From the NCBI GenBank assembly GCA_041651035.1, contig JBAZKC010000001.1, forward strand, positions 579,244-643,243: a DNA stretch of 64,000 bases, read 5' to 3'. The notes beneath the pieces are model-generated. The model saw only the letters and a program-made list of their open reading frames with translations. It was not told the DNA's origin and did no database searches. The stretch is from Candidatus Omnitrophota bacterium (GTDB lineage: Bacteria > Omnitrophota > Gorgyraeia > Gygaellales > Profunditerraquicolaceae). Positions 21,001 through 57,000 of the stretch are shown piece by piece (position 1 is the stretch's first letter; each line of letters starts with the position of its first letter). A program made the position numbers and the translations under genes.

Positions 21001-24000
21001 CGGTAGGAGCTACCCGCACCTTGATTCCTGAAGAAGGTAAACTTGATATAGCCAACATTGCCCAGCAGATAGCCGCTTACCATAAAGAAAACAACTATTC
21101 TGTGGTTATCCTCTCTGAAGGTATCAAGGTCATCCGCGACTTTGCCGACAATAACCGTATCCTGGAAGCAGCTTTTAGCAATGATCCTTTAGCCAGGGCT
21201 GCCTATGAGATGGCGGCAAAGTCCGCACCTGACCAATTCGGCCATCCCAAGCTGCAGAATGCAGACATCATCATGGCCGCAGCCTTAAAGGCAGCCTTCA
21301 AAGAACACAAAGAAAGAATAGATATCAGCCGTTCAGGCAAGTTAGACTACCTTATCCGCTCCGCTCCCACCTCAGAGAAAGACCTCAACATGTGCCGCCT
21401 CCTGGGTGAATCCGCTGTAGAAATGCTCTTAGAAGGAGAAAAAGGAGCCATTGTCTACTACCACCAGGGCCAAGCTAAGACCTTAGCGCTTACTCCTAAA
21501 TTAGGCGGCAGGACAGTTGACATAGAATCAGCCCATAGAGAAGAATACCTTAAGGCTAATCAGGCGTTTAAGATAATAACCAGCTCCCCACTTGGCTCCC
21601 TTGTCCGTACTGAAACAAGACAGTCAAGTTCTCCCTTTTCAAAAACCCTGCTCACTTTCTCTTTAACAGCCCTACTGTTTATATTTTCCTTCTTCCCCAC
21701 CTCCGCCTTTGCCCACTACTTCAAGGACACCCCCCAGGGTAGGGTAGCGGTAGTGGAAGAATGGTCCTCAAAGGATCCCCAGGTAAACACCTTAGGCGGC
21801 ATCGGCAAGGATATACTGGAAGCAAGAGGCGAAGAAGCCACCCTGGAAGCTCTTTACGGCAAAGACGGCAACAGTGGCATAGTAAGAGAGCTTAAGGATG
21901 TTAATAATCTTCCCACTGACTTAGTTTCCCCTGGCCAAGAAATCAAAGTGCCAGCAAAAGATGTCCCTGTAGCAAAAGAACAGCCAGCCCCTTCCCCTAA
22001 AGAAGAGATTAACGAGTCAGAGCGACAAGTTAAATCTCAAGATAAACAAGACAAGAAAGAAGCAAAAGAAGTGGCAGGCAAGCATAGAAGTTATCTTCTC
22101 TGGGCCTTGTTTGGCGGCGCTGTTATTTGCTTAGGTTCAGCATTCCTTCTGATATTGGGTAAGTTCAAGTCTAAGAAAAAAGTAACGCCGCCAGCAGAGA
22201 AAGAAAGTGGAAAGCTTTATACTCCAACTCCTACTGCAGACTGGTCCTCCAAGCTCGGCCTTCAGGAATCCGACCGCATCCATATGACCGGCCTGCAGCG
22301 TAAGCAGCGTAAACTACAGTCTCTGACCCCAGATGAGCAGTCAAAACAGCAGTTGGAGATCGGTGCAAACTTTCTGCCCTCCGCGCTCTTAACAGACCAG
22401 CAGCGCAAAGAAAAGCTCGGTGCCGAAGAATTTACCGTCATTGAAGAAGATACAGAAAATGCCTCTTTTGCCAAAGACAACGTAGCAGTTAGCTGCCATC
22501 CCATGGATGGAGGCTTAGGCACTGGCGTTGTCCGGGAAGACTACCTTGAGATTGATTTAGGGCGCCCCAAAGATGATCCTAAGACTAATCGGGCAAAGCT
22601 AGGGGCCAAGGCCACAGACCTTTTTATTGACTTTATCGCAAAAGGAAAAGACGCACAAGGTAATCCTGAAGATGTCCCGGTAAAAGTCTCTATTGCCGAA
22701 ATCAAGTTCCTGCGTGTCATAAAGGATGCCCCGTTATTTAGCGAAGTAGTTTTCCAGCCGCTGGTAAATGACGACTCCGCGCCTTCCTACCATAAACTTT
22801 TAGACAGTGTTTACCTGGAAGATGTCATTGATAATACCGTCAGCGAAAAGAGGGCCTACAGGCAGGTCCTGGCAGAAAAGGGCATTAAGCTTGCTAAGGG
22901 CGACAATGATGAGGTGATGCTTTATCAGAAGGACTTACCTATTATAGATATCGAGACCGGGGAATTGACCGATAAGTTTACCGCACCCGGCGGCCATGGC
23001 CAGTGGGGGGTAAGGCTCTTATATGAGGCCTTAGGCTTCAGGCAGCCTGAAGGTGATAAGAAAAGCTATATCCGGGCCTTCTACAACGGCGACGGCATTG
23101 CCAACTTCCCGCCTGCCTCTGTCTTAGGCTGGATGGCCAGAAATAAGGTTCCCATCATTATGATCTCTACCACCAAGGCAGGGTTAGATAAGAAAGGCGG
23201 TCAGATTGGTATTCAGAGACTGCCTGACGGCAGCTTCCGTATACAGATGCTTGAGTTAGCCCAGGCCAAGAAGCCCGGCAAAGATCATGAAGAGCTTTTC
23301 TACTCTATCGGCCTGGAAGGAAATCCCAATATCCCGGGCAAAGATATCCTGGGTAAGGATCCCGAAAAAGACTATACCTACACCAACCAGCCAGGGGCTC
23401 AGTATTTTAACACCAATATCGCCTTGATTAACTACAGCGTGCTTGCTCCTATACTCCAGGAGCTAGCCAAAGAAGAAAACGTAGAGTTTGAAGGAGAAAC
23501 CTTAAGCGGCAGAGAGCTCATTGAGCGCATCATTTCACCTGATTTGATTGAAAACGTCAAGGACAAGAAAGACGGCCGCAAATACACCCAGTTAGAAGGG
23601 GCTATCGGCTCAAGCCTACTTAATCTGAATGCCTTCCTGACCAGCCGCGGTAAGCCGATCCTTAGGGTGGTAAATGTACCTACCGATCTAAGGAGTGAGG
23701 TCTTTACCCCGGTAAAGAATGCCTTTGATTTCATCTTCCAGAACCTTTCTGATTACTATGTGGTAGACCAGGAAAACTGGACTCTACGCGACAGAAGCAA
23801 GGGCCAGGTGCCCCCCTTGGTGGACCTTAAAGAAGATAAATTCTACGCCAATGTCCATAACTGCATCAATGCCTTCGGCAAACTCGCGCTTATTAGCTTA
23901 GAGCATTTGAGCATTGAAGGCAGGGTGCAGCTAAAAGATGCTACCTTAAAGGGTGAAGTTAAGATAATCAGCAAATACCCAGAGGTATTTGACTTGAATT

Positions 24001-27000
24001 CCCCTGAATCCAGAAAGCAGCTTAATCAGGAAGGCGAGCAGCCGTTAATCCTTGAAGATATTAAAATTAACATTAGTGAAGATGGGAAAATGGACATAAG
24101 TGGTGCAAGTTCTCCTCTACGGGTTCCCTTGCAGCAAGTCCGCTCCAGCAGCCCGATAGATTTATTTACCATTAAAGATTTTGTATCCCAGCATCCGATT
24201 TTAACTGTTATTGCTGTTTATGTATCGTGGAAATTATTGAAATTGGTCGGTAAATGGCAGAGAACTATGGCAGCAATAATGCATTATCGGCTTAAACCGC
24301 AAGAACTTAAGTATTTAAAAAATAAGTACCCTACCTTTTTGCAAAATGAAGGGTATTACAGGAAGGTTCTTGATAGATTAGTGTGTGATAGAATAAACTC
24401 TGGAGATTGGGGTAAAGTTTTAAAGGGTGTAGAGGTTATTAATAGACGTTGGGAATATGTATATAATCCTCAAGAGTCCATCTCTTTCAAATATGTTATC
24501 AGCCGACCCGAACCCTATATGTCGAAACAGTTAGTTGTTAAGAAAATGACTTTCTATCCCCATTTTATAGAGCGTCTAAGTCTTCTTTATGAGGTATGGC
24601 CGGAAATGGCAGAGGAAATAATAGATGCAATGCTTACTCATGAAGAAGGCCACCTGCGTAACTATTACAAATTTATGGAAGGCAGTATATCGGGAAAATA
24701 TCTGGACGAAAATGATGAAAAACTCGCCTTTGATCATCTTAAAAATGAAAAAGGAGAGAGGGCCATGGCCCTGACAACATGTTGGTTCCAGGCCTATATG
24801 AATCCTTCTTATGAGCTAGAGATGCACTCTCGGGAGTATTTCTCTGAGTTTAGGCCGATTTTCTTTACTTTAACCCCTCAGGTCTTGGATTTAATTTTAG
24901 GCATAGAAAGAGAATATCAAAAGAGATTGGCTTTATCTAGACTATCGAAAGAAGGGGGTGTCTCTAGTAGCCCCATTGTAACAAACGGCGATCTTTACGG
25001 CTACTTGTCGGCTCCACTCAAGACTATCAGCCCAGCCATTAATTACGATGTTAGTCCTGAAGAATACCAGGAACAGCTGAATAGGAATTTTGCGGATAAA
25101 GACGCCGAGACAGAAAAAGTCCTTAAGCTTTCGCAGGCCAAGCTAAACCGGCTGATGCAGAAAAACAGAATGGTTTTCTTGCCTACCTTGGAAAGAAACC
25201 GCGAGCATTCTGCGTTCATAAGCATTGATCTCGGAGACGCTATCGCATTAAATAGATACGCATTGGATATTCAGGGCATAGTTCTGCAAAGTATCGGGGA
25301 TATAGACAAGATAAGGTTTAGTGATGTATCTAAGCTGCACGTCAGCTTAGTCAATAATACGATTGGCAATCAGACTGTAGATATCAGCAATAAGGCGCTA
25401 AGCACTCTTTATTTAGAACACATGGAGGCTTTTGCATCCCTTACTGCCTTTGATGTGAATATTTGCGGCCCACATCTTATGCCGCCCCTATCCATTGTGC
25501 TTGAGGTGAGAACTAATGCTCCTCAGCTTAAAGCTTTTAGAAAGCAAGCCCAGGAGATTTTGGACAGAACCGCCCCTCAAGAAGGCGTCATTGGATTCGT
25601 CCCTGATATCACCCATATATCCTTAGGTTATATTGTTGAGACACAGCGCAGAGAACTACAAGAGCTTTATCGACTCTTAGAACAGATAAAGAAAGACGCC
25701 GTGCCGTTTCCGGTGACCGCATCTCAGGTCCAGATAATCGCGTCAATTAATAAAATGATGGTAAATGATGGGGCAATAACAGTTACCTTGCCATGCTCCT
25801 CCAGCCCGCTGGAGAAGAAAGGCTCTTTTGTATCCAGCCTGAAGCGGACACTACGATCCCTGCTCAAGCAGGTCAGCAAGCTGCCCATAGATAAGATACT
25901 CAATTTAACTCCTTTAATCGGCTTAACCCTGTTGTTCAGCGCCTGTATTGTTATAGATAATGCCCCGCGGGATCCGGAAGTCGAAGCGCTTAAAGCCAAA
26001 GCGCTCAGGTACGGACTCCTCTTTGCGTTCGTTGTGGCGTTCTTACCTCTGTACCTAGCGCCTATTGATAGAGCTGTACGCTATATTGCGCGCTCTATTA
26101 AATCCCTGATGACCATAGAAAAGAAAGGTCCACCCGCTGCAACCCCTGGGCAAAAGACCCCCGCGGCAAGAGATAAGGATAAAGCTTCCTCCAACCCGGT
26201 ATCCGTTATTAATAATGAAAATATTCCTTGTGTTATTTGTGGATCAAAAAATATCACTGTCCTCTTAGAGAGATATTTAAATGATCATTACTGCCGGTTA
26301 GTTAAATGCAATGAATGCGGTTTAGTTTGTGCCAACCCAATGCCTTCATTACAGCAATTAAGAAAAATCTATTCAGAGGGTTACTTCTTAAGTGCGAATC
26401 CGCACATTATAGGTTACAGAGATTATTTAGAAGAGAAAGATATAAGGATTAAAAATTACAGTTATCTTTTAAACATGTTAAATGAATTTAAAGCTCAAAA
26501 AGGCAGATTATTAGATATTGGCGCAGCTTTTGGCTATTTCCTGGTTGCCGCAAGAAACGCAGGCTGGCAGGTTATTGGCACGGAGATTTCTTCCTATGCC
26601 AGGGGTATGGCAAGAACTCTCTTTGATCTAGATATATTGCCTTTAGAAACTATAAAAACAGCGGGATTCCCCAGCAACACATTTGATGTAATTACGTTAT
26701 TTGATGTGTTGGAGCATTTCTCTAATCCATTGGAAGAACTATTAGAAATAAACAGAGTTTTTAAAAAAGACGGTGTTCTTCTATTGAGGGTTCCTGTATT
26801 AGATGATCGTGGGCTAGAAGGCCCTATAGTGAAAGCCGGTCACTTATTTTATTTTACCATTCCCACGCTTGAACTCTTGCTTCGAAAAGCAAATTTTAAA
26901 GATTTAAGAATTTACGGTGATCCTTTTAATAGCGATATATCCCATGTAGTTATTGCTGGAAAAGTTTCGAAGAAAGCTTCTGCGCCGGCGACTCATAAAG

Positions 27001-30000
27001 AAAAATCCAGTTCTCCCTTGGGGGCGCTGCTGTGTACCCAATTGAAGCAGAAAGGTCGCTCCAGTCCTTCGACTCGCTATGCCAATAGGATGAATAGCTC
27101 GCTCAGGACTAATGGCGAGCGAAGCCGAACCACCAGCTCGCCGGTTATAATACTTCCCTCAAAGAGACAGCTTAAGAGTTTAACCTGGGGGTTCTACGTA
27201 TTTGAAATCCCTGAATCCCAGGTAGGCGGCATTGCCGATGTTGCCATGGGCCTGCCCGAGGAAATAGTAAGGGCAGAGACCGGCGACGGAAGGCCGCACA
27301 GGGTATTCAGGGTTTCTCCTTATTATCAAGGCATGGAGGCCATGACCAATGGCGTTCCTCTTTCAAGCCTAAAGGAAGTCTGTCAGTATCGTATTCCTTA
27401 TCAAGAAGGTATCGAGATTGTAGAGGTGTTTAAGCGAACGCTTGACAGCGGGATTACCGATTATTTCCTGGTAAACCCGATATTTAACCGCGCTTATGAT
27501 AAGTCCGACCAGAATAATCCTGACGGCGCCATCAAAGAAATAGCCCTCTTTAATATGGCCTCTGCCATGCTGCTTATTTCAGGAGAGACAGCTGCGGATG
27601 TAATGTTTTTAGCTGACTGGCAGACAGGATTAGTTATCCCCTACCTTAGAGAAGAAGCCTTGTCTGAGTCGCGGGCAGCATTGAGAAGAATAGAGATCAT
27701 GAAGGGCTTCCGAAAATTTAAGGCAGCTAGTTTGGTAGATGCTTTTATAAACAGAAGGTCGCTAGAGAAAATAGTGCCTATCTGCTGGATTAATAACGAG
27801 GCCTATCGCGGACAGTTCGCGATTACCGGAAAAGAAGATTTTGAAAAGAAGACCGGACTATTCGGCCAGGAGAATTTTGAATGGGCGCGTTGGACTACTC
27901 CGGGTCGGGAAGACGAAGTCTTTATGGTTATCCTAAAGCTGGCTGTGGAAAGCATTGCTGCCACAGGAGGAAGGATAGTTACGGTAAGCGATACTTATGC
28001 CAAGGAAATTATGGGACAAGACCTTTATGCCGGAGAGTATCCGGGGATGTTGCACGGAGTTTTAAGACGCACCAAGGTAACCGGGATCTTAAATGGCGTA
28101 AGTCTTAACTGGAGATATGTCCATGACATCAGGGAAAAAAGAGAGAAGAAATTAGCCCTGCAGGGAAGCCTGGGATTAGAGAGGGAAGGTTCAAGCAGGC
28201 TGGTCTTTATGGTAAGCCGGCTGGTGAGCCAAAAGGGTATATCCTTGTTTGTGGACGGCGCAAAACAGATAGCCTTTTTACTTAAGAGATATCCTAAAAT
28301 GCAACTGGTTTTAGGGGGGCCGCCTGAAAAGTACTGGTTGAGCCGCTTGGAAGGACTCAAATCATTTTTACAATCAAAATTTCCGAAAAGGGTAAAAATA
28401 ATTTTGGACTTCCTCCCCGCGGAAGGTTTAACCAAAGATCTTTTAATCGGCGGAGACATCAATCTGTTTCCTTCTCTATATGAGCCTTGCGGTACCGTAG
28501 GCAAAGCAGCCATTAATATGGATGTAACTATAGCTCGGTTGACCGGAGGTATTCGCGAGAGCGCAACGGAAGTAGATATTCTTAAAAATACAGGAAATGC
28601 CTTTACCTTCGAGGATTATACGCCCGAAGCACTTATTGAGGCCTGGCAAAGAGGTATGGATTTAAGCCTGGATGAAGAAGTATGGCAGGGTATACAGGAA
28701 GCTACCCCCCAGACAGTAATAACATGGGAAACGCAATTCCAGAAGTATGCCAGATTAATATATGAGGCGCGTAGGGCTAAAGGGCTGGAAGCCAGCTCGC
28801 CGCTGGCGGCCCCTGACAAGGCCGGATTATCCTGGATCCAGCGGCACGCGCCGCTTTTAAAAGATAAGATCATAGTAACCATTTCTATGGAGGGCAATAT
28901 TCCTGAATTCGTCGGTAATATTGCCCAGGATGCCAATACCAAGGGCGGGTTAGGGGCGTATTTTGGAGATAAGCTTGAGGGTCTGGCTAAAATAGGCATG
29001 CAGGCCTTTGGCATACAGCCGGCATATTCCATTATGGAAAACGAAGGTAGAGGTGTAAAGCTGGCAGTGGATTATGAACAGCTTATTCGGCAAGGCATTG
29101 TCCAGAGGCTTCTTGATAAGAATGGCAATCCGATGGTGCTTTCTGTAACGAGCTGGTATGACAATAATAATGATAATGACAAGAACGGGCTTCATCAGGA
29201 TCGCTGCGTAGAGATGCAAGTCCTTAAAGTCAATCGCGGAGGAACTCCGCTGTTTTTATTAGTCTGTCCCGAAGTTTTTGACGTGCTTTATACCACCAAC
29301 AGGGTGCACCGTTTCACCCAGGAGATGGTTTTCGGAAAAGCTGTTTATCAGTTATTGACCAGGCTTAATATTGTCCCGGATATTCTGCATTTAAACGAAG
29401 CGCATACAGTAGTAGCCGCGGCTAAAATAAGAAGCGACGATAATTTTAAGAAGACCAGGGTCGTCTATACCAACCACACTGTTGTTCCTCCGGGAATGGA
29501 AATTTTCCGTGAAATAACCGAGCAAAAGATCGTCAACCGCATGATGTATTTAATCGATGAAAGTCACAAGCTTAATGAAAAATTCATCAAAAAGGGCATT
29601 GTTGATTTCTGTTATGCTGCCACTCAACTGGCAGATATCATTAACGCAGTCAGCGATGAGCATGCTCTCAACACTAGGAAGCTCTTTGAGAATGTATACA
29701 AAGAGCAGTACGGGGAGGAATTTGACAAGCAAGTTATCGCTATCTTAAACGGCTCAGGGGATTTCTGGCTGAGCGATGCTTTGGTGGTGATTCATAACAC
29801 AGGAAGGCTGGCTACTAGAGAGGAAATTTGCAGCATCCATGAATCCTCAGAGAAAGAGGCCCTGGAAGAAATCAGGGTACGCACAGTTAGTTCCTATGAT
29901 CCTGAAGGGATAAAGCTTGACCCCAACAAGCCGACCATTTGGGCAGTAAGAAGAATCGTAGACTATAAGAGTCAGTATCCTATGTTGCGGTTCCTGGTGC

Positions 30001-33000
30001 ATCTTATCTGCGCTGACCGCGACAGGCACTTCACCAGGGATGAGCTTAAGAGGCTGTGGTTTAGGGATATAGGAGGCTTGGCTAATGCCTACCGATACAA
30101 CCAATTAGGGTTGAGGGAAACAGTAGAGACTGTCCTTGACCGTCTTTTTATAGGCAGAGATGAAATTAATGGTTTGGGTGGGCAAATAGTGGTGGGTGGG
30201 CCTACCTTCGGCAGTTATTTGCAGGAGTGGGTAAGCGAATTTAAGAAATGGACTTATAATGTTGAGGATCTGCGCGGAAGATTCGTGTATGTCCCTTGGT
30301 CTGATGCCAAGTTGCTTAAGATGCAGGCAATCGGCGCAAATATCTGCGTTGATTTTCCCCCCTATGGCGATGAGGCTTGCGGAACTTCCCATCAAAGGAC
30401 AGCGCTTAACGGAGGTATCGTTATTGCTATAAATGGCGCCGGCCCTGCGGAAATGATGTCGATGTCGGAAAAGATAAGGCGTTTTCTTTTTGGTCCCTAT
30501 GTCATTCAGACCAAAGACGGACTGGTGAGTGATAATAAGGCCTTCTATAATTGCGCACCGCCAGACTTGTTTGGGAAGCTAGAGATGGTTACCGCGGATT
30601 TCTACGATAATAAAGAGGCGTATAAAGACGATATGTATAGTTTTTATCTGGCCTCCCAGAAAGTTACGGCCCAGGCCATGGAAGAGCGGTATACAGAGCA
30701 GGCTTATCTACCCTTAGTTGATAAGGCCGCCAGCTCTCCGGTGGGGGCGCTTGTAGGATTGCGGTTAGATATCAGAAGAGACCACGCCAGCGCATCATTA
30801 CAAAGATATAACCATCAGCAAATTCTAACTCAAATAATCGGTTTTCCAGCTCATGCTATCCATGCTCCGCCTCTAGCTAGCAGCAGCCCGCTTGCATCCC
30901 AGGCCACAACTGCCCCCGCAAGCTCCCTGCTGCAGAGAATAGCAACATCTGCCTCAAAGCCCTTAGCCGTCTTTATTCTAACCGTCCTATTAACTATCTT
31001 TTCTTTCCTCCCCACCCCCGCCTTTGCCCACTACTTCAAGGATACCCCTCAGGGCAGGGTAGCGGTAGTAGAGGAATGGTCCTCTAAGGATCCCCAGGCA
31101 AACACCTTAAGCGGCATCGGAAAAGACATGCTGGAAGCAAGAGGCGAAGAAGCCACTCTGGAAGCCCTTTACGGCAAAGACGGCAACAGTGGTATAGTAA
31201 GAGAGCTTAAAGGTGCTAATAATCTTTCCACTGACCAAATTTATCCCGGCCAGGAACTTAAGTTACCAGCAGAAAATACCCCTATAGTAGAAGAACAAAC
31301 AACTCCTTCTAAAGATCAAATTAACAAACCACAGGTCAAGCCTCAGGAAAAACCAACCAAGGAAGAACAAACCAAGGAAGCCCCAGCCAAGCGGAAAATC
31401 CATATCTTCTGGGCCGTAATCTCTGTCTTATTTACTGGTATCCTTATATACCTAGGCAAAATATTGCTCATTAAGATACTACGCAAAGTTAAACCCGCCC
31501 CAGCCCCTGCTGTTCAAACCCCCGATATCAAATTCGGCACCTCAGGTTGGCGCTGGGATGAATACAACGAATATACAAAAGACGGCGTATTCATGGATGA
31601 CTGGTTCTTAAACGACTTCTATGCCGCCATACAGGCCTGCGCAGAGGAAATATTAAAGCAGGAACAGCTTAACCCCAAAAGAAAAGGCGTTATCATCAGT
31701 GGCGATACCCGCTCAGTAGGCCCCTACACCAACCTTGACCTGGTGGAGATGGCTACAGATTACTTAGGCAAGGCAGGAATATACGTAATCAAGCTGGAGC
31801 AGTATTGTCCTATTCCGGCAGTCTCCTGCCTGATCAGCCGCCTTAATGCCGCCGGTTCCATATACTTCACCGCTTCGCATAACCCGGGTAAGGGTTATTC
31901 TATTACCAAAGAAGACGGCTCTACCATGCAAATCAATAACGATGGCATAAAATTCAACCCTGCTGATTCCGGGCCCGCGGGAGAAGAAATCACCGGCCCC
32001 ATAAACCAGCGCAGCAATGAATTAAGGAAGGCAAGCTTCGGCACCAGATGGTGGGAGGATATTATCAACCGGCAGGAAAGTGTTACGCCGCTGAGTTATT
32101 TATTTACTACGGCATCTATAGAATATATTGAATCTCTTAAAGAAGTCATTGATTTTGACATAATTAACAAGGCATTTAAGCAAGGGGATATAGATTATAT
32201 TGTCATTGATACCAAGCACGGCGCAGCAGTGGATTATTACCGTGCTATTATTGAATATTTAGGATTAGAAGAAAGTAAGGATTTTGAGATCATCAACGCC
32301 GAACACGACTCAAGCTTTACCCAGCTGGTTGACCCTGAAAACAACATCTCTCGTCCTGACCGTCCAGAACCGGATGCCAAATACTCTAAGCATTTAATAA
32401 CAAGAGTAAAAGAGCTCAGCAGCCAGGGTAAGAAAGTCATCGGTGTTGCCTGCGATGCTGATGCTGACAGGAATGGTATTGTAGACAGCACAGGCACCTT
32501 CCTTGACCCGAACATGACCTTAGCCATTATCTCAGAGTATGCCTTGCAGCAGGCCTTCATCAACTGGCTGGAACTTAAGTATCCGGAAAAACAGCTAGCC
32601 TGCGATGATTTTATAGAGACAGAAGACAGGCGGGAACAGTTCAAAGCCTTGACCCAGGAATTTATCGCAGAGCAGAATGTCGGACTAGCCAAGACTATAC
32701 CCACATCCAACATGATCAATGCCATTGCCGCTATCTGGGGCTGCCGCCTTGAAGAGACCAAGGTAGGCTTTAAATGGTTCAGGCCCTACTTATTGCCTGG
32801 CTCTGAAAATCCAGTCCTGGTTGCCGGAGAAGAGTCCCAGGGTCTAAATATCCGCAGCCAGAGAGAAAACCCCAGGTATATAGTCCTGGAAAAAGACGCC
32901 CTGGTAGCCGGCTTAAAGATGCTGGAAATAGCCTCCAGGACCGGCCTTACTCCGCTACAATTATCCGATAAATTACAGGAAGGAATAGGCTACTTCGCCT

Positions 33001-36000
33001 ATAACCGTGGCGGCGTAGACCTGCGCACTAAGACCGACCTGGATAAGATAGATACCTTAAAAGCTGCCCTAAAGAAACAACTAGATGCTTTAAAAGATAA
33101 GATATCCAAAAAAGAAACAACAGAAATCTCCGGCAAAGCCATTGCCCAGCCTATCTTTGATGACGGCTACAAGCTGGTATTTGCTGACGGCTCCTGGCTA
33201 TGCATACGCTTCTCCGGTACAGAGCCCGTAGTAAGGCTATACACGGAAGCCAGCGGCAAGACACCCGAAGAAGCAGAAGCTACTCGCCAGGTTAACCAGA
33301 AGATCGGTGAAGAGCTATTGGAGTTAAAGAGTAGTGAGCAGCAAGAGGGGGAAGAAGATTCAATAGCTCTTGCCACCGATAGTTCTAATGTGTATAATAA
33401 TAATATGGAAATGGATATTGCAAACGAAAAACAGCAAGGCGCTATTGTCGCCGAAAAACTCCGTACTCCGCTTAATACGGCTGATGAGTCAATGGCCAGC
33501 CATTTCTTGGAAGGCGGATATGGTCAGGTTGGTTATGGCGTACCTGATGGCGCAGCAGTGGATGGTTCACATACCTTTGATGAAGAGAGTATCCAGGGAT
33601 ATTATGCAGGTAAGGCCGGCAAACAGGCATTCTTAAAGACAGTAAATGCGTGGAAAGTTTTCTTTGCGAGTAGAGCAGAGAAATTAGGTAAGCGTATTAT
33701 AATCATAATTAAGATCGGCATCGGAGGGCAACATACGCCATTTCAGGGTATTGCTAGCGGGATTGAAATAATTGATGCGACGACTGGTAAGATTATAGGC
33801 GAATATGAATTAGGCAAGGATTTTGAATCTGCTATAGCCAGCATATTAAAACAGTTTAACGCCGGTTGGGACCAAATTGCGGTTATTCCCAGCTCCAAAT
33901 CAGGTTCCACTGATGAATCTATGATGGTATTCGTTGAGATCCTGTATGTTATTTTAAAACACATTGCGATGCAAAAAGGTATCAACGGAGAACAATTTGC
34001 CAACACCGTTTTAAATACGTTGCATGAAGTAAACTTTATAGATGGCAAAGAACGCGCAGGAAGAGATTTATTTAAGGGCTTTAACCTCAAGCTGATTAGC
34101 GATAAGATAGGCGTGGACGATAGTTTAGTTAAAGAAATATTCGGCATAGTCTTGGGTAATATGTTCTTTGAGACTACGGACAGGCCTGATCAGAGCCGGC
34201 TTTCCGCGTTTATCCGTAATTCCGGGTTGGATGAGGAATTAGGCGAAGATGCCCCGGGATTTGGGGCGATGTTTGATAATGTGGGCGGCCGCTGGACAGG
34301 CGACCTGCATATGATGGCGTTTCTGGCATTCCATAAGCTTAACGCCAAAAAATACTGGAAGAAGCGTTATAATGGCATAGTTAAGGTTGTTAAGGGAAAA
34401 CATGCAGGGAATGTTTTAGGGAATAAAATACTTGATGAAATAATTACGGATATCGCATTAATTGTTCCGGACTGGCTATTCTGGTTCGGTAAGTCCTGTG
34501 AGCAGAATTTCAACGAAAGTATCTGGCAGCTAGGATTTGCCAATTTAGTAACCATTAAACAGAGCCATTGGGATATGCAGAAGAGGCATTATGAAAACAA
34601 TCCTCACAAGCTGGTAATCAACCTATGTGGTATTTCTATCCCGGATACGTTTAATGTCTTTAAGGTAAAATTACCTAAGTTAGAGAAAGTTAATAAGCAG
34701 AAATTAGTAGGAATATTTGCGGAGCTTTTTACTACATTCTATGGTATGACCAATACCGTAGGCACTCGCCTTATCGCCCGCGCTTTAATAAAAGCAGGAT
34801 TTACGGCTTCTGACGTTGATATGAATGATTTGGATAAGGACGCCACTAAAATTGTCCAGCAAAACCTTTTCTTACGGCAACCGTATGTAGAATTGGGTAA
34901 GGTCTTATTAGAGAAGAGACTAAAAGAATTACAGGAAGAAGAAGCTAAAAAAGCAGGAGCGATTGGAAAGGCATTAGAAGAGGTTAAGCGCTTGGCCAAA
35001 GAAGGAAAGCTTGAAATTAGTATCCCCGGTATGAACGCGCCTGCAAATATTAAGAACGTAGATGAGCTTGCGGAAGTAATGCGCCAGGCAATTAGTTTTG
35101 CTAAGACTAATAACCGCAAATTCGTGCCTTTCATTTACCTGGAAGGCGAGAGATTCTATGGCTTGAGAGATTATTTAACAGAATTAGGAATAGAATGGGT
35201 TATGCAAGGTACTGGCGACCAGCATATCAGTTATCAGCAGGTATTAGCCCAGCCGCAGAAATACCTGATGTTTATGATTTCTTTCGTTCCAGAACAGGCT
35301 CTCCCCGGCAGGCCGGCAATTGGTTTTGCCAAAGGTTATCTGAATAAGATCAGCCCCAATATGGTGCGGGATTATTTTGCCGAGGCTTCTTATAAGGCCC
35401 TGACTGAACTGCGTAAAGAAGAAGGCGGGAGAGGCCTATTCTTAAGATTAATTGATTCTGTCGATAATTATGACATGTTAAAAGACGCTATGAAGATAAG
35501 CACAGCAAAAGAATCTGAAAAAAGAGCTAATGCTGCTTATCCTTTAGCTGTTGATGCTGAGGCCCAAAAACAAGCCGAACAAAAATACGGCAAAGGGAAA
35601 GTTTTAACCGATATTAAAGTAACAGATTTTAGCCTGAAACAGCCCAAATCATTTTTGGATAACCACTACGAAGTTTTAAGACAAAGGCTAGAACAGCTAG
35701 AGCAACTCTTAGGCCGCGCGCCTCCGGAACTCGCTAATTGGACTCTTGTTATTACCACCGATTTATCCCTCACCCAAGACAATGTCGCTGCCTGCGATAT
35801 CACCACAAAAACAGTCTATCTCCATCCATATTTCTTTAGTCTCCCTGAAGCCAAGCAATTAGAGATTCTCTACCATGAACTTATCAGCCACATTACAAAA
35901 GGCATAAGTGATGAGAAAACAGCAATACAGGATACAAAAGAGTTTGCTGAAAATGAGCTTGTTCTTAGTCGAATTATAGATTCTTTAGAGAAGATCATTA

Positions 36001-51000: not shown

Positions 51001-54000
51001 TTCTACGAGTAGAAACAACTCCTTATCATTGGGGATGGGTGCCCAGAATAATAGCCATATGTTCCAGAGGGCATATTATTGAGAATACTCTTACGGGAAT
51101 GGGAAAGAAAGTGCGTAAACATGATATTATTACGTATTGCATCTCAACAAATATTAAAGCAGTCCTTGATTCCGCCTTAAAATTGCTTAAGAAAGCAAGA
51201 TCTGTAATTTTGGTAACTCATCCTTTGCATGTGTTAAGAGTAAGGGCTGCAGCCAAAAGCTGTTATAAGCGTATACATTTTATAAGTTACGATATCCCTT
51301 CTTCATTTTATCTTGATGTTTCTAAGTTGATTGGTGACCAAACACAATTACAGGATTTGTTAAGAGAGGCCGTAGAAGAACTGGAGAAGATAAAGATAGG
51401 CATAGAGAATGGGAGTATAGATGCACGACTGATAAATCCTCGTGAATTCTCTTATTTGAGTAGAATTTTTGTTCCGGTATCTTCCAGCAGCCCGATTAGC
51501 GCTGATGCTGCAGCCAAAACTCCTTCTAGTTCGCCAATTATGGCTATTCTTCAAGTACAGTGGCATATATGTAGATTGAGGAGTGATAAATTTTATGTCC
51601 GCGCACGCGCAGTCATCGCTCTAAGTAAGCTTGGCGGCAGGAGAGCGCTACGGCATTTGATCAAAGCCTTAAATGACCAATCTTGGGTCGTTCGTAAGTT
51701 CGCGTGCGCAGCTTTAGGCATATTTGGGAATCAGAGAGCGATTGGGCCTTTACAAAATGCTTTAACTGACCCAAACCAGAATGTCAGCTTAGCCGCAACT
51801 AAGGCTTTGGCAAGAATACTCTATGCCACTCTAGGTATGGCAAACGCAAGGGATTTTGTAAACCATGGAGGCATAAGGGGCTCGCCTTCCAGTCCGCAGG
51901 GGATTATCCATCGTATTATCCGTAAAATAGCCCGCATATTTTTCATCAGTCTTTTTCTCGCTTTTATCATACCTATAATGTCAGCTACATCACTCGCCCA
52001 AGAAAAAGGTTTCGCAACTCCCTACGATTACGTTTGGGAAGGTCTAACTCTCTGCGAAAAACGAAATCCTGATTATGAAACAGCGATTGGAATGTTTACC
52101 AGGGCTATTGAACTTGATCCAGCCTGTCTTGACGCATATGAGGCCCGTGGATATATCTACTTCAATCGCGGAGAATATAAAGAGGCGATAGTTGATTTTA
52201 ACAAGGTTATAGAATTTAATCCAAGGTATACTGTAGTGTATAACGACCGTGGGCGCGCTTTTTATTATCTTGAAAGATATAAAGAAGCAGCGGCTGATTT
52301 TACTACGGTTATTAAACTTAAACCAAACTCTGTTAATGCATATATCGGCCGCGGGGCCGCCTGTTATTACCTTGGTAAATATGAAGAAGCGAGAGCTGAT
52401 TTTTGTGAGGCGTTTAAACTCAACCCAAAAAATACTAATGTGCGCGAATGGATGGAGCTTGTTAATAAAAAAATTGGTGTAAAGAAACAAAGTCTTCCTT
52501 TTGACCGTTCGACTCCATCTAAAATACCTCCGTTTTGCTCTTCCAGCCCTATCGACTCCGGCTTTATAAAGGAATACGAGAACAATATAAAAGACAGGAT
52601 TATGGCAGATTTGCCTCGTTCTCTCGCTGAACATTTTGGCATAAGCGAAGAGAAGATTTCTTTAGCCATAGATGGTGTTGGAGTCAAATATTTAGGAGAA
52701 GGGATAGAAGAACGCGTAGTTTGTTACGTGGTTATTAAAGAAAGGCCATATTTCATAAAAACCGCAAGGCCCGGAGAACAGGAAGTACCCGGCTCCAATA
52801 CCCTAAAAGCCCTATACCTGCCTAATCCAAATACTGAATTCGTGATGGGCTCAGATTACAACTATTACGTGTCTGTTTATATGGGCAATGTGAACTTTAC
52901 TACAAGCCCAGCCGACAATCTCAAAGAAAGAACATTCAGGGAATCTTATGCCTATCAACTTGGCAAAATGGCGGCGGCAGCCTTTATAATAGGCTTAGCA
53001 GATAGAAACCTTGCTAACTCTGTAGCCTTTATGCGCGGCAATATAATCTGTGAGATTGTCAATGTTGATTTGACCACATCTTTTACTTATCTAGATAAGG
53101 AGCCGCTTGATGCCCTTACTGAACAGATAGCTTTATTAAAAGAGGCTATCGTAACCTTAAAAGAAAACGGTCTTGGCGAATATGTCAAGACCTTTAAGGC
53201 AGACTATCTGGCTGGATTTAAAGAACAGATATATGAAACCTGGCTCTTGTTAAATTCAGATAAGATAGGTATTGAGTTATCCCTATCAAAAGCAACTGGC
53301 AGGTGGCGGGAAGTTTTGACTCGTATTAAGACTGCTAAAGGACAGTTGCATTTATTAAGCTGGCAGATATCCGTTGCTGTTGTTTTTTCTGACCCAGCCG
53401 CATCCAGCCCATTGAATCAAACATCCAAGGATAAAATCGGCGCGGTGGTTAAAACAGTCGGCGATATTGTCAATTTCTATTATGCTAAATTTGTTGTTTG
53501 TTTGGTGGGCATAGACCTGGCAATTCAATTTTTAATTATGCGCCTGTGGGATAAACCAATACATACCGAGTGGTATTATGAGGATATCCCTACTGGAATA
53601 TTTACTGAAATTAATGGTTTTGATTTAGGCTTCCTTCCATGCTTCCATGCTTCTAATACGTTGGATATATTCTACAAACTAATAGTTTCTCTGCCGTTTA
53701 CTTTCTGTATGCTTTATTTTGCATACAACAAGATCAATGCTTATAAATCTACAAGATTAAGGCTCAGTTTATCCGCCGCCGGAATTTTAAGCAGCGCAAT
53801 TTCGCTTATAACCGGTAGTGGCATATTGGGTATATTTTATCTGCCGTTTACTTTCTGCATGTTTTATTTTATCAATGCTTCTAAATCTATAAAATTGGGG
53901 CTTAGTTTAGCAACCGCCGGCATTTTAAGCAGTGCAATTTCGCTTATAACCGGTGGTGGAAAATTGGATTACTTGGTAGTGCCTGATCGCTATGGCGTGG

Positions 54001-57000
54001 CTTCCTGGGCAACAAATCTTGCCGATATATTGTGGTATTCAGGACTGTGCATTACCGCTTTATCTTTAGCCGTATCTTTTATTACATTCATATTAAAATA
54101 TACAATAGAGAAGGTTACTCCGGTAGATGTTACTGCTGTTGGTTCTAGTAGAGAGGGATCTAAAAAAGGCGCTTCTCCGGCTGGCCCTGTTTCCTCCAGC
54201 CCGCTGGGCCGCTCTCTCAGAGACACATTCGGCACGGTGGTGAGAAATCTATCCGAGAATTCCTCCAGCTTGGTCCATTTAAAAGACATTGCCACAAAAG
54301 GATTAATTCGTGCAGGTCCGGCACGGATACTCAAGAATGTAATTGCCTTAGCGGCATTAGTAATTATCGGGCTGTTAACTCTATTCGCTGCTCCAACCTT
54401 AGTTAATAATGCCTCGGCAGTTGAATATAAAGATCAGGCTGAAGTCAGAGAAGTATCTCCTTCCCAGATAGAAATCCCCATACGTATTATCTACTCTAAT
54501 CACAGAACAGAAGCAGACTTTAACACATTGGTTCCTGCTTTGGACGAGGCGTTTAAGGCTGCCAAAGATAAGAACCAGAAAATCCTGTTGTTCCTGGAGG
54601 AGTGTGTTTTTCCAAGCGAGTCAGCAAGAGAGGACTTCAAAAAGATATGCCCTGGCTGGGATATTGATAAAGTTATTAATGATCCTGTAGATCGGGAGCA
54701 CTTTGAAGAAGCTTACTTATCGTATTTAAAAGATGAACAAGAATACGTCCGAACACTGTGCAGTTCCACAGATTGGCTCAAGGATTATAAAGAAAATACA
54801 GACTTTGCCACAGCTCTATTACGTTATATTACAGAGAAAATAAACAGCGGAGAATATGAAATTCAAATTTATCTTGAAACTCCGCCATTTGAATATATTT
54901 TGCATGTTCTACAATATTCAACATTAGAGTACTCTGCTGATGTCAAGCTTAGGGATGAGGATTTATTTAAGGATATAAAACAAATATTAGTAACTTCTTC
55001 CGACAACAATAGTGTCATTATTATCAGAGGGGAGCTTCATACCTATCTGGGTAAATTGTTTGAGGAAAACGGATATAAAGTTAATTATTCAAACGGAGAA
55101 GGTTACGAAAATCTTGTTAAATGTTTTGAAATTATTGGAAAAATGCAGAAAGATCATGATATATCTGCGCCATCTGTCGCCTATACTCAAGAGATTAAGA
55201 CCTGCGAAGGCCATGATGCGGATTATTGGATGATGCAACTTACAGATGAGCTGCCGTTTACTCGTAAAGATGCTGCCAGAGCCTTAGGTGAAATAGGCGA
55301 TCCAAGGGCAGTGCCGGCCTTGATAGAAGTTCTTAAAAAAGACAATAACTGTTTTATAGTATCCGCAGCTATCAAAGCCCTTGGTAAAATAGGCGACCCG
55401 AGCGCAGTTCCAGTATTGATTGAAGCCTTGGAAAACAGTGATAGCGGTATAAGGAAATCCGCTGCCAGGGCCCTTAAAAAACTTGGTTGGGAACCTCAAA
55501 ATCAAGAAGAACAAATAAAATACTTTTTTTCCATAAGGGATTGGGATGCTTTGGTTAAAATTGGTAAACCAGCAATAGAATTATTAGAAAACAAGGGCTT
55601 GAGCGACGGTGACTTTAAAATAAGCATTCCAGCTCTTGAGACTCTTAGAAAAATCGACCCTGATTGGCGGCCGACAGGAGATTTTTCTTTGGCTCCCCAA
55701 GAGAAAGACGCAAGCGATTATATTTTTATAGTAGTCGTGGGAGCTGGCGTATTTATAATCATTATAGGTTTCTCTGTGCTGGCCTGGATGCGCCTATCAG
55801 AGTTGAAAGCTGCTGAAAAAGAAAAGCGCGGAGAACAACAAGAAACCAGCTTTATCGGCGGCACTACCTTTATTAATATTGAAGAGCGTAAACGTGCTTC
55901 ATCTCCGCTAAGCAGTAAACAGCAGTACCAGCAGTGGACCGATGAACTTGAAGAGGCAAAATCAAGCTGGAAACTATTTGAGATTGTCAGAAATATCGGA
56001 GAAAGCCTTCTTGATAACTCCGAGCTTCTGGAGCCGGTTATTAGTGTCTTTCTTTGGGCAAAGTTAAATATGGCTCAAGCACAGTCAAATATGATTGGGG
56101 AGAGGCTTGCCGGATACATTAAGCAACTGTTTTATCATAAATCCGATTTTAAGCCAACTTTCAAGCAACTAAGTTTTCTTATTAGTATCTTTTCTCAATT
56201 AAATTTAAGCGATGATACCCGAAAAAGCATTGGCGAAGCCATTGAGCAGGTTTTTATCAATAATCCCGATATTTTAACCCCGGTTTTCGTTTGGGTGAGC
56301 TGGAAAAACTCGGCTAGGGTGCGGAATGGGGCTGCTTATTTAATTAAACAGGCTATTAACAGAAATCCTGAGAGCCTTATGCCTGTATTTATTTTAGGGC
56401 TAAGTGATCCCGATGTCAGGAAAAGTCCATACCTTCGAGATATTGAGAAAAGAATACTAAGGGAAGGCAAGGGCAGAGGCGCCTCATCTCCGGTAATCTG
56501 TGTTTGGCAGCAACTAAGAGGCCGGATTAAGGCTCTTGAACAGGCAAGCTCGAACTGGGAACAGTATCAGATTGCTATAGAGATTGAGGATGACCTTATT
56601 GATAATGTCAATCTTCTAACCCCAATTCTTAATGTTATTCTCCGGACAAAATCGAATATTATCCAAGAATGGCTTGTTGAGGTTATTGAACAAACGTTTC
56701 GCGACAAAGCCGAATTTAAAGTGGCCTCCAAGCAGCTAGGGATCATTATTAATATATTTATCAAAGCAGGTTCAGATGATATTCAGGAGAGGCTTGCCGG
56801 TACTATTGAACGGATTCTTTGCAACAATCCAGACCTTAGGTTAACCCAAAAGCAGTTTGATAATCTGGTTGCCGTATTTGTTCAGACAGGTTCAGAGAGC
56901 ATACGACAAAAACTTGCCGGTGTTTTTGACCAGGCGCTTAGCAATGAGCCTGAAATTATACCAATTATCGTTCAAGATAGGCTTATTGGTGTTTTTGCAG

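Follow-up and report, generated by a model that had tools for sequence, protein, structure and literature searches.

Predicted export signals located downstream of a recurrent Ser-Ser-Pro motif within a giant open reading frame of an Omnitrophota bacterium

We analyzed a 64,000-nucleotide stretch (hereafter, the window) of a contig from a Candidatus Omnitrophota bacterium (JBAZKC010000001.1, assembly GCA_041651035.1), in which forward frame +3 contains no stop codon in 21,332 codons, whereas the other five frames contain 718-2,002 stop codons each. The open frame runs off both ends of the window, and Pfam domains lie in this frame all along it. It encodes a chain of gene-sized units that include PFK, UGPase, glycogen synthase, PGM, GlgB, GlpX, methyltransferases, HEAT/TPR proteins and membrane proteins. 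The closest relatives were found among Omnitrophota MAGs and Ca. Velamenicoccus archaeovorus LiM, with direct homology of 59-67% in the UGPase unit, and they are likewise giant ORFs. Relatives are designated below by L or P numbers; L002 and L003 are Ca. V. archaeovorus.

The units are separated by a five-residue motif, [S/A/T]-S-S-P-[L/V/I]. The tripeptide SSP occurs 54 times against 4.1 expected (in 200 shuffles the mean was 4.2 and the maximum 10), and the full motif, scanned as [SAT]SSP[LVIMF], occurs 45 times against 0.23 expected. Position -1 is S23/A18/T6 and position +1 is L21/V15/I9. The Ser codons mix AGY and TCN, indicating that the constraint acts on the peptide. SSP is the most enriched tripeptide in the window and also in six relatives (11-20 fold; L002, L003, L004, L006, L007 and P0007), with lineage-specific variants, [IVL]SSP[ASTG] in LiM and SSS[IL] in others, a pattern that a co-evolving protease and site would produce. 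The features of the window are collected in Table 1.

Table 1. Features of the window, in window coordinates; all are on the + strand. Signals 1 to 5 are those of the earlier note, and an arrow marks a predicted cleavage site.
Coordinates	Feature	Supporting observations
3-63998	Stop-free reading frame, part of a giant ORF of an Omnitrophota bacterium
13437-62855	Punctuated zone: SSP tripeptides cut the ORF into gene-sized units (120-1,744 aa) and short spacers (11-50 aa); the first 4,478 residues of the window have none
21627-21713	Motif (21627-21635) and signal 1 (21636-21713): SSP-FSK-TLLTFSLTALLFIFSFF-PTSAFA↓HY, 17-residue h-region; predicted SPase I site after 21713	Homologues keep A(-1), a small residue at -3 and HYF (+1 to +3) although the h-region has diverged
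21714-24107	Predicted mature product of unit 1: LysM-type domain (about 21873-22010), linker, stop-transfer helix (22089-22160, followed by KFKSKKK), UTP-glucose-1-phosphate uridylyltransferase	About 100 multi-LysM proteins match query residues 80-125; Pfam LysM E = 0.028; Pfam UDPGP; flank charges
24147-24239	Motif, short tail and N-terminal anchor helix (24195-24239), predicted N-out/C-in, an orientation that needs a free N-terminus	C-flank positive (+4), N-flank acidic; the homologous unit in P0007 also starts right after SSSP
25800-25946	Motif and a sixth signal, of lipoprotein type (25809-25946): SSP-LEKKGSFVSSLKRTLRSLLKQVSKLPIDK-ILNLTPLIGLTLLFSA↓C, positive n-region, Cys codon 25944-25946; then a return helix (26004-26066) and a SAM methyltransferase	Lipobox scan; flank charges +3 / -3; Pfam Methyltransf_23
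30882-31028	Motif (30882-30890) and signal 2 (30891-31028), a paralogue of signal 1: ...ATSASK-PLAVFILTVLLTIFSFL-PTPAFA↓HY, 17-residue h-region; then LysM, helix (31398-31481) and phosphoglucomutase (about 31527-33263)	Repeat D1, 85% nucleotide identity; Pfam PGM_PMM I-IV
36114-36224	Motif and signal 3 (36123-36224): SSP-VKKEILAVET-TRRTFVK-LSLAAAGALELL-PISA↓C, twin-arginine motif (36153-36173), weakly hydrophobic h-region, lipobox ISA↓C (36213-36224); unit ends at the next motif (36930) with no return helix	Pfam TAT_signal hit at residues 13-28, below threshold (13.4 bits against 22.7); AF2 model of the mature part, low confidence: disordered stretch of about 45 residues, then a beta-sandwich
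51888-51998	Motif and signal 4 (51897-51998): SSP-QGIIHRIIRKIAR-IFFISLFLAFII-PIMSATSLA↓QEK, 12-residue h-region; a TPR protein follows, ending at the next motif (52542) with no return helix	Pfam TPR_1, TPR_2 and others
53847-54066	Weak match to signal peptidase II (LspA) inside a multi-helix unit (53403-54194)	Pfam Peptidase_A8 E = 2.3e-4, 21.8 bits against a cutoff of 25
54195-54419	Motif (54195-54203), variant SSSL (54261-54272) and signal 5 (54273-54419): ...LIRAGPARILK-NVIALAALVIIGLLTLFAA-PTLVNNASA↓VEY, 19-residue h-region; HEAT repeats, then a stop-transfer helix (55719-55790) 33 residues before the next motif (55899)	Pfam HEAT_2 and HEAT_PBS

An earlier note, made from the sequence alone, had proposed that five segments within this frame, each shortly after a punctuation motif, resemble the starts of independent exported proteins. 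That observation was confirmed, as all five segments lie where the note placed them. Each has a positive n-region, an h-region of 12-19 residues ending in Pro, and either a small-x-small site or a twin-arginine motif plus lipobox. All five have a net positive N-flank (+2 to +4) and a neutral or acidic C-flank, and the distance from the preceding SSP to the start of the uncharged h-region is 3, 23, 17, 13 and 44 residues for signals 1 to 5, respectively. The distances for signals 2 and 5 are long for an n-region. The ordinary stop-transfer helices of the same ORF, starting at 22089, 31398 and 55719, look different: they have 24-28 hydrophobic residues, no Pro/small-x-small tail, and a K/R cluster directly after them. 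The sixth signal was not listed in the note.

To ask whether this placement exceeds chance, we scanned the whole ORF for signal-peptide architecture using explicit rules (n/h/c regions and the -3/-1 rule), such that the classification of all six segments rests on these rules and on comparative data. The scan gave 9 sites, of which six lie in the 10% of the ORF that is within 46 residues after an SSP (binomial P = 6.5e-5). Also counting two twin-arginine regex hits that lack any hydrophobic region gives 6 of 11 (P = 3e-4). By residue composition, [ST]RR.F[LIV]K should occur about 0.006 times in an ORF of this length, and the scan found it once with a hydrophobic region, at signal 3. None of the roughly 17 hydrophobic segments in the motif-free first 4,478 residues has true signal architecture.

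The units between motifs are complete proteins. The Pfam PFK profile starts (position 1) 3 residues after an SSP, the GlgB C-terminal profile ends 8 residues before one, and no Pfam domain spans a canonical motif. UGPase homology starts 3-10 residues after the motif in P0003, P0004, P0006, L004 and L006, each with different upstream neighbors, and unit order is shuffled between relatives with breakpoints at the motif. The note had offered two readings: a polyprotein whose processed fragments are exported, or formerly separate genes fused with their signals retained. The second is probably true as history, but it does not explain why the signals are maintained.

A stronger form of the fusion reading, in which the signal-like segments are non-functional relics positioned after the motif only because old gene starts lay there, draws some support from the gene-like behavior of the units and from units 3 and 5, for which no homologues were detected and which therefore lack comparative support. 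We consider it very unlikely. In P0014, L011, P0068, P0100 and L012, the h-region has diverged but stays hydrophobic, the n-region stays positive, -3 is A or S, -1 is always A, and +1 to +3 is always HYF; this n/h/c architecture and -3/-1 site persist in homologues with 26-33% identity to the window copy. In P0014 and L011 the signal again starts 1-2 residues after SSP. Within the window, paralogous signals 1 and 2 differ at 8 of 23 residues, against 12 of 82 in the mature part, all hydrophobic-for-hydrophobic or small, yet AFA↓HYF is kept. The downstream domains (LysM, and a predicted lipoprotein-type tether plus beta-sandwich) fit export, and relic hydrophobic segments inside soluble fusion proteins would be harmful and should decay. 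An independent example of a motif followed by a signal occurs in L007, where SSP-ITRRDALRRF...LLNA↓CGGGGG forms a Tat-lipoprotein-like signal directly after the motif.

We next considered whether a single uncut chain could accommodate these signals. In this alternative, the ORF gives one giant membrane protein, uncut or cut only in the periplasm, the signal-like segments act as internal start-transfer helices, possibly cut on the outer face by signal peptidases I and II as host signal peptidase cuts flavivirus polyproteins, and SSP is only a flexible linker or modification site, leaving the cytoplasmic enzyme blocks fused and membrane-tethered. Signals 1, 2 and 5 and the 25.9 kb signal are each followed by a return helix, keeping parity locally, and P0068, P0100 and L012 carry the SP-LysM module without a nearby SSP, suggesting either that another punctuation exists there or that the signal works without scission. 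Giant Omnitrophota ORFs with tens to hundreds of helices have also been read as membrane-anchored proteins (10.64898/2026.06.07.730766), and an internal Tat-dependent helix occurs in actinobacterial Rieske proteins. However, several junctions give impossible topologies for an uncut chain, although these arguments depend on crude helix prediction and the positive-inside rule. L011 has a true N-terminal signal and then a second N-in/C-out signal with no return helix between them; P0004 has Met, a signal and an exported domain, then SSSP and a UGPase with no helix between. In the window, the 24.2 kb helix is predicted N-out although it follows the cytoplasmic UGPase, and the absence of return helices in units 3 and 4 would put downstream units on the wrong side. 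In addition, a plain linker would not need a five-residue motif conserved across lineages and placed exactly at native protein N-termini and shuffling breakpoints. We regard the uncut chain as unlikely.

There is no sign of separate initiation: none of the 22 in-frame Shine-Dalgarno-plus-start combinations lies within 100 nt after a motif, and half of the residues after SSP use codons that cannot start translation. Separation during translation, in the manner of viral 2A "stop-go" peptides or by some other non-canonical ending and restarting, would also free each N-terminus. Pro is invariant in the motif and is a poor peptidyl acceptor, the motif prefers rare TCG (35% against 8.7%) and CCG (50% against 27%) codons, and +1-frame stop codons are weakly enriched right after it (20 of 45 against 29%, P = 0.02), though this last signal is largely explained by the L/V/I preference. 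Conversely, no NPGP-like motif (the defining D(V/I)ExNPG↓P of 2A) is present and no upstream context is conserved beyond position -1/-2, whereas 2A needs about 18 residues; codon choice in the motif is heterogeneous, Rfam finds no structured RNA, and 2A-type skipping is not known to have been shown on bacterial ribosomes. This possibility appears remote.

Taken together, the interpretation in the note was partly supported, with the evidence favoring its first reading. In the explanation we prefer, with moderate confidence, the giant ORF works like a polyprotein: dozens of complete proteins (cytoplasmic sugar-metabolism enzymes, membrane proteins and exported proteins) are encoded head to tail in one frame without stop or start codons, and each junction is marked by the pentapeptide, often as a pair enclosing a spacer. 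The chain would be separated at or next to the motif, most likely by a dedicated endoprotease acting in the cytoplasm, probably while translation is still going on. Separation would turn the six segments into genuine N-terminal signals, four of Sec/SPase I type (1, 2, 4 and 5), one Tat lipoprotein signal (3) and one Sec lipoprotein signal (25.9 kb), directing their own units across or into the membrane while neighboring enzyme units stay in the cytoplasm. Units 1 and 2 would mature into bitopic proteins with a periplasmic LysM domain and a cytoplasmic UGPase or PGM. The open frame, the motif, the unit boundaries, the signal architecture and its conservation, and the association of signals with the motif are results of the analysis, whereas the scission itself, the exact bond cut, the protease and actual export are inferred. 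No protease was identified; the HExxH units at 24.6, 37.3 and 38.6 kb are only candidates.

The description of either reading as unusual for bacteria, made in the note, needs qualifying. Giant Omnitrophota ORFs are already known ("Archaeovorin" of Ca. V. archaeovorus and the "multi-enzyme metabolic" giants of Gorgyraeia), and they share with this ORF a length above 20 kb, many helices and sugar-metabolism Pfams (starch synthase, PGM, methyltransferases and HEAT). Cleavage into several products has been suggested, without cleavage sites (10.1101/2023.11.21.568195). Both preprints on these ORFs treat them as single giant membrane proteins, and one explicitly deletes internal signal-peptide calls as chunking artefacts (10.64898/2026.06.07.730766). 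Among the papers we could search, none describes cleavage sites, internal signals, the SSP punctuation, the exact unit boundaries or the motif-then-signal arrangement.

Parallels exist in other systems. In flavivirus and pestivirus polyproteins, one ORF also encodes many mature proteins, short conserved junction motifs lie on the cytosolic side and are cut by the viral protease, and internal signal sequences with small-x-small sites, cut by host signal peptidase, decide which products face which side of the membrane. Here, however, the ORF belongs to a cellular genome, is at least 21,000 codons long and encodes housekeeping enzymes, Tat and lipoprotein signals are included, and the signals seem to need a free N-terminus rather than alternating strictly with stop-transfer helices. 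Picornavirus and potyvirus polyproteins (3C / NIa proteases with 5-7-residue sites) likewise carry a short recurring motif at every junction between complete proteins, but their products are not exported through internal signals, and x-S-S-P-hydrophobic resembles no protease site known to us. Viral 2A peptides also separate products of one ORF without a stop codon, with Pro essential. The Rieske helix shows that a twin-arginine motif can work away from the N-terminus, and Atl autolysin and gingipain/HagA show that bacteria cut some precursors into separate proteins, although these cases involve one protein family and two or three products, with no universal junction motif.

The LspA-like match in Table 1 is a possible in-ORF partner of the lipobox signals, but it remains unconfirmed, as NCBIfam and PDB sequence searches were negative and an AF2 model was unusable. 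In favor of the preferred explanation, peptides of the LiM giant ORF have been detected by proteomics, as cited in PMC10066038.

Frame +3 has no stop codon in 21,332 codons, whereas the other five frames carry 718-2,002 stops each, and the ORF runs off both ends of the window. Its translation is not repetitive filler. Pfam searches identified, along this one frame, an M23 peptidase, a histidine phosphatase, transketolase-like sequence, phosphofructokinase (PFK), UTP-glucose-1-phosphate uridylyltransferase (UGPase), three SAM methyltransferases, glycogen/starch synthase and a second GT5-like unit, phosphoglucomutase (PGM), an amylase-like unit, the branching enzyme GlgB, a GlpX-type fructose bisphosphatase, HEAT and TPR proteins, and an HD phosphohydrolase. 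In total, at least 15 distinct enzyme or repeat families occur, with native-like N- and C-termini at unit borders. As Pfam domains lie in this frame along the whole window, we rejected an assembly artefact or a non-coding ORF. The only homologues of the UGPase unit were fragments from Candidatus Omnitrophota MAGs (designated here by P numbers), and a scan of reference genomes returned Omnitrophota MAGs and two places in the giant gene of Ca. Velamenicoccus archaeovorus LiM (59-60% identity). These loci (L001-L007, including L002 and L003 from LiM, NZ_CP019384.1, 73-107 kb) have frames open across the whole locus. The ORF, which exceeds 20 kb and has many helices, therefore belongs with the giant ORFs of Omnitrophota genomes. 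A metagenome scan with the unit comprising signal #2 and PGM found no relatives, and a scan of viral contigs with the UGPase alignment found none.

The tripeptide SSP occurs 54 times in the ORF against 4.1 expected (mean of 4.2 and maximum of 10 in 200 shuffles), and the full motif, [S/A/T]-S-S-P-[L/V/I/M/F], occurs 45 times against 0.23 expected. An unbiased k-mer test ranked SSP as the single most enriched tripeptide in the window and, independently, in six related giant-ORF fragments (11-20 fold). The motif has lineage variants, SSS[IL] in some MAGs and [IVL]SSP[ASTG] in LiM, where the hydrophobic residue precedes the SSP rather than following it, and it is absent from a few fragments; the lineages of P0068 and L001 are among those without SSP. 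The UGPase unit is present at least twice in the LiM giant gene, each time directly after the motif. Information is confined to positions -1 to +4 of the motif. The two Ser positions use both AGY and TCN codons in several combinations, so the constraint acts on the peptide and not on the DNA, although there is a secondary codon bias (TCG 35% against 8.7% background, CCG 50% against 27%), with the rare Ser codon TCG 4-fold enriched at the second Ser. About 15 copies share the DNA string CCAGCTCGCCGGT, which may reflect codon choice, a copy-and-paste origin and spread of the junctions, or a programmed translational pause at unit borders.

A DNA or RNA signal is unlikely as the main cause of the motif, given the codon heterogeneity and an Rfam scan that found nothing. 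Separate translation of each unit is not supported: no Shine-Dalgarno-plus-start combination lies within 100 nt after any motif, Met is not enriched after the motif (6 found against 12 expected), and about half of the codons following SSP cannot initiate translation. A frameshift into a hidden +1-frame stop gained little support, as such a stop overlaps the L/V/I codon after the motif in 20 of 45 cases against 29% for other L/V/I codons (P = 0.02), a weak effect that is probably a by-product of the GTA/CTA codon preference. A 2A-type ribosome-skipping peptide lacks its defining sequence, D(V/I)ExNPG|P, as there is neither an NPGP nor a conserved upstream context.

The motifs delimit whole proteins. 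Unit sizes are 120-1,744 residues, with short spacers of 11-50 residues between paired motifs, and unit borders coincide with native protein ends. Position 1 of the Pfam PFK profile aligns 3 residues after an SSP (by our reading, SSP-LIHRIAVLTGGG corresponds to MIKKIGVLTSGG of E. coli PfkA), and the C-terminal profile of GlgB ends 8 residues before one. In relatives P0003, P0004, P0006, L004 and L006, the conserved start of the UGPase unit lies 3-10 residues after the motif while the unit upstream differs in each, so gene-sized modules have been shuffled with breakpoints at the motif. In L006 and L007, sequences that we read as the N-termini of phosphoglycerate kinase and cytidylate kinase follow the motif directly. 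In contrast, the first 4,478 residues of the window contain no SSP at all; this stretch, with an M23 peptidase domain and about 17 hydrophobic helices, is either one truly giant unit or a region with different punctuation.

All five segments that the earlier note had picked out as resembling the starts of exported proteins are present at the stated coordinates, and its observation is thus confirmed and, with a sixth signal, extended. Each has a net positive N-flank (+2 to +4), an uncharged h-region of 12-19 residues that ends in Pro, and a neutral or acidic C-flank. Segments #1, #2, #4 and #5 conform to a Sec-type signal cleaved by signal peptidase I (SPase I): the Pro lies at -6 to -9, small uncharged residues occupy -3 and -1, and +1 is not Pro (AFA|H, AFA|H, SLA|Q and ASA|V, respectively). 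They depart from it in placement, as they lie, as encoded, 7,211-18,090 residues into an open frame and have no Met, and would become N-terminal only after an inferred scission at the motif. Segment #3 instead has a twin-arginine motif, TRRTFVK, matching the consensus S/T-R-R-x-F-L-K and followed by a weakly hydrophobic h-region, LSLAAAGALELL; by our calculation from residue composition, roughly 0.006 chance occurrences are expected in the whole ORF. Its match to the Pfam TAT_signal profile fell below the gathering score (13.4 bits against a cutoff of 22.7, E = 0.078), although the profile is short and the hit lies at the expected place, residues 13-28 of the unit. Segment #3 ends in a lipobox, ISA|C, that fits [LVI][ASTVI][GAS]C, whereas the sixth, lipobox-type signal at 25.9 kb has F-S-A-C, a looser fit with F at -3. 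The stop-transfer helices of the same ORF are clearly different, with 24-28 hydrophobic residues, no Pro/small-x-small tail, and a K/R cluster immediately after them.

A rule-based scan of the entire ORF identified nine sites with signal-like architecture: the five reported segments, the sixth signal, and three others (the helix at 22089 and two weak hits). Of these nine, six lie within 46 residues after an SSP, a zone covering 10.0% of the ORF (P = 6.5e-5); counting two twin-arginine pattern hits that lack any hydrophobic region gives P = 3e-4. None of the roughly 17 hydrophobic segments in the motif-free first 13.4 kb has genuine signal architecture.

Comparative data lend support to the signals. 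Signals #1 and #2 are paralogues (300 nt at 85% identity); 8 of 23 residues differ within the signal, all hydrophobic-for-hydrophobic or small, against 12 in the next 82 residues, and AFA|HYF is kept. An exhaustive HMMER search with the module of signal, LysM, linker and helix yielded three large proteins that match across the signal. Together with two metagenome loci, these five homologues show an invariant A at -1, A or S at -3, invariant HYF at +1 to +3, a positive n-region, and a diverged but hydrophobic h-region, the usual evolutionary signature of a working signal peptide. Such conservation is hard to reconcile with the reading that the segments are relics. In two of the five, P0014 and the metagenome locus L011, the signal again begins 1-2 residues after SSP, and a different unit in L007 starts SSP-ITRRDALRRF...LLNA|CGGGGG, a Tat-lipoprotein-like signal directly after the motif. 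The same search matched about 100 multi-LysM proteins over residues 80-125, which would make the passenger of units #1 and #2 a peptidoglycan-binding, extracytoplasmic type, though the Pfam LysM match is weak (E = 0.028); unit #4 is a TPR protein and unit #5 has an unknown domain plus HEAT repeats, neither of which is diagnostic. Units #3 and #5 have no detectable homologues, and a search of 5.8 billion proteins found no stand-alone ones. An AF2 model of the mature part of unit #3 (pLDDT 55.6) gave only weak jelly-roll matches (TM-score up to 0.31, E at or above 1e-3), which are not informative.

We next considered whether a single uncut chain could accommodate these signals. L011 shows the true start of such an ORF: an N-terminal signal (...SWA|GATE), a domain of about 440 residues, SSP, and then a second N-in/C-out signal, LysM and a helix followed by RRRQR. 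Two successive N-in/C-out segments without a return helix cannot coexist in one chain without violating the positive-inside rule twice, and cutting at SSP resolves this. P0004 has Met, a signal and the same exported domain, then KKSSSP and a UGPase, with no helix between them, such that a UTP-dependent enzyme would, if uncut, follow the exported domain outside. In the window, the helix at 24.2 kb has flanks of -1 and +4, predicting N-out/C-in although it follows the cytoplasmic UGPase, which is feasible only if its 16-residue tail is a free N-terminus. Units #3 (Tat lipoprotein-type) and #4 (signal plus TPR) end at the next motif with no return helix. These arguments rest on simple hydropathy and charge rules and are supportive, not proof. 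The flavivirus-like single-chain model with processing only in the periplasm remains the main rival: it fits signals #1, #2, #5 and 25.9 kb, each of which is paired with a return helix, but it does not fit #3, #4, L011 or P0004, and it leaves the motif unexplained.

We therefore favor, with moderate confidence, a model in which the ORF is translated as a polyprotein and separated at or next to the S-S-P motif, probably by a dedicated cytoplasmic endoprotease acting during translation. In this view, the freed N-terminal signals would engage Sec/SPase I (#1, #2, #4, #5), Tat plus the lipoprotein pathway (#3), or Sec plus the lipoprotein pathway (25.9 kb), while enzyme units would stay in the cytoplasm and units #1 and #2 would become membrane-tethered UGPase and PGM with a periplasmic LysM domain. 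Our analysis establishes the frame, the motif, the unit borders, the signal architecture, its conservation and its link to the motif, whereas scission, export and the machinery for either are inferred. The interpretation in the earlier note, which had weighed a polyprotein with exported fragments against fused genes retaining their signals, is thus partly supported, with individually exported products of a polyprotein as the best reading. No protease family with specificity for the motif was found; the M23 domain and three units that combine transmembrane helices with an HExxH motif are present but unlinked to it. The HExxH units gave no significant family match (a weak Tox-MPTase2 hit for the last), and are only candidate membrane-associated metalloproteases and possible processing enzymes encoded inside the polyprotein.

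Giant ORFs over 20 kb are common in Omnitrophota, where they take up a large part of the genome and their products are a puzzle, and peptides of the LiM giant ORF have been detected (PMC10066038). West-Roberts et al. suspected cleavage because of C39 and S8 peptidase domains. A 2026 preprint (10.64898/2026.06.07.730766) describes 'multi-enzyme metabolic' giants with starch synthase, PGM, methyltransferase and signal-peptidase-II domains, reads them as single membrane proteins, downgrades every internal DeepTMHMM signal call as a chunking artefact, and concludes that the metabolic content faces the periplasm. Read as single chains, these ORFs give odd results, such as ATP-, UTP- and SAM-dependent enzymes predicted to sit outside the cell. 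In the literature that could be searched, no paper combines Omnitrophota with polyprotein, cleavage site or internal signal peptide in this sense. The ORF class is therefore known, whereas the junction motif and the motif-then-signal grammar appear to be new, and they change how these ORFs should be read.

A junction motif with export signals directly behind it offers a concrete alternative, in which the units are released and sorted one by one. If correct, this would supply the missing cleavage sites, the lack of which stopped earlier structure-prediction work on these proteins, would allow hundreds of giant ORFs to be re-annotated into ordinary proteins with sensible locations, and would point to an unknown protease or ribosomal mechanism. 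It would also show that polyprotein expression, so far a hallmark of viruses, is used by cellular life for housekeeping functions. In its broadest form, which we consider about as likely as not, Omnitrophota would express a large share of their proteome (glycolytic and glycogen enzymes, membrane proteins, lipoproteins and secreted proteins) from virus-like polyproteins cut at a five-residue S-S-P motif, each product then being sorted by its own Sec, Tat or lipoprotein signal. This would be a mode of gene expression and protein targeting not known in any cellular organism, and would provide a usable grammar for splitting ORFs of 10,000-147,000 residues into their real proteins.

Positions of features in the window (nt unless marked kb)
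Feature	Position	Remark
Stop-free frame +3	3-63998
Stretch without SSP	3-13436	M23 peptidase domain at about 40-300
SSP before PFK	20343
PFK	20.36-21.43 kb
SSP after GlgB	46866
SSP motifs, examples	39060, 41799, 49272, 58707
Motif pairs or triplets with short spacers	20181-20351, 21582-21635, 24108-24155, 27009-27143, 30732-30890, 40986-41096, 51486-51536, 58638-58715, 61473-61514
Conserved spacer peptide	20.28 kb, 30.83 kb	also in fragment P0006
38-nt repeat	27100-27137 and 62809-62846	82% identity
LysM-helix module with UGPase	21714-24107
LysM-helix module with PGM	31029-33300
Stop-transfer helices	22089, 31398, 55719
Helix predicted N-out/C-in	24.2 kb
Sixth signal, lipobox type	25809-25946	F-S-A-C ends at 25946
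Unit #3	36114-36938
Twin-arginine motif of segment #3	36153-36173	TRRTFVK
Lipobox of segment #3	36213-36224	I-S-A-C
Unit #5, as searched	54195-55199
Units with transmembrane helices and HExxH	24147-24965, 36930-38048, 38049-39059	HEEGH, HELKH, HEFIH
Multi-helix unit with LspA-like match	53403-54194	tandem duplication, 53682-53829 against 53832-53967

The multi-helix unit directly upstream of signal #5, in an ORF that carries two lipobox signals, has a sub-threshold Pfam match to signal peptidase II (LspA), and its GGGKLD and WATNLAD sequences resemble the two catalytic-Asp motifs of LspA. NCBIfam and PDB searches were negative and the AF2 model (pLDDT 44.8) did not confirm this identity, which remains a lead.

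Motifs often come in pairs or triplets, the first motif of a pair usually being SSP[LV]G[ASV]L.. and the second [ST]SSP[LVI]. A conserved spacer peptide, QQ[IVL]L.[EQ]QIIG...H...P..SSSP, occurs twice in the window and in the unrelated fragment P0006, and could be a released peptide, a protease docking element or a former intergenic region. Junction sequences also seem to be reused, as a 38-nt repeat lies immediately upstream of two distant motifs, encodes ...LRT[ND][GD]ERS..SSP, and contains a short inverted repeat (CGCTC...GAGCG). Finally, UGPase and phosphoglucomutase, normally soluble enzymes, are each fused behind a module of LysM domain plus one transmembrane helix, suggesting sugar-nucleotide enzymes tethered to the membrane with a peptidoglycan-binding ectodomain; the related sequences P0001 and L001 keep the HYF...helix-UGPase arrangement.
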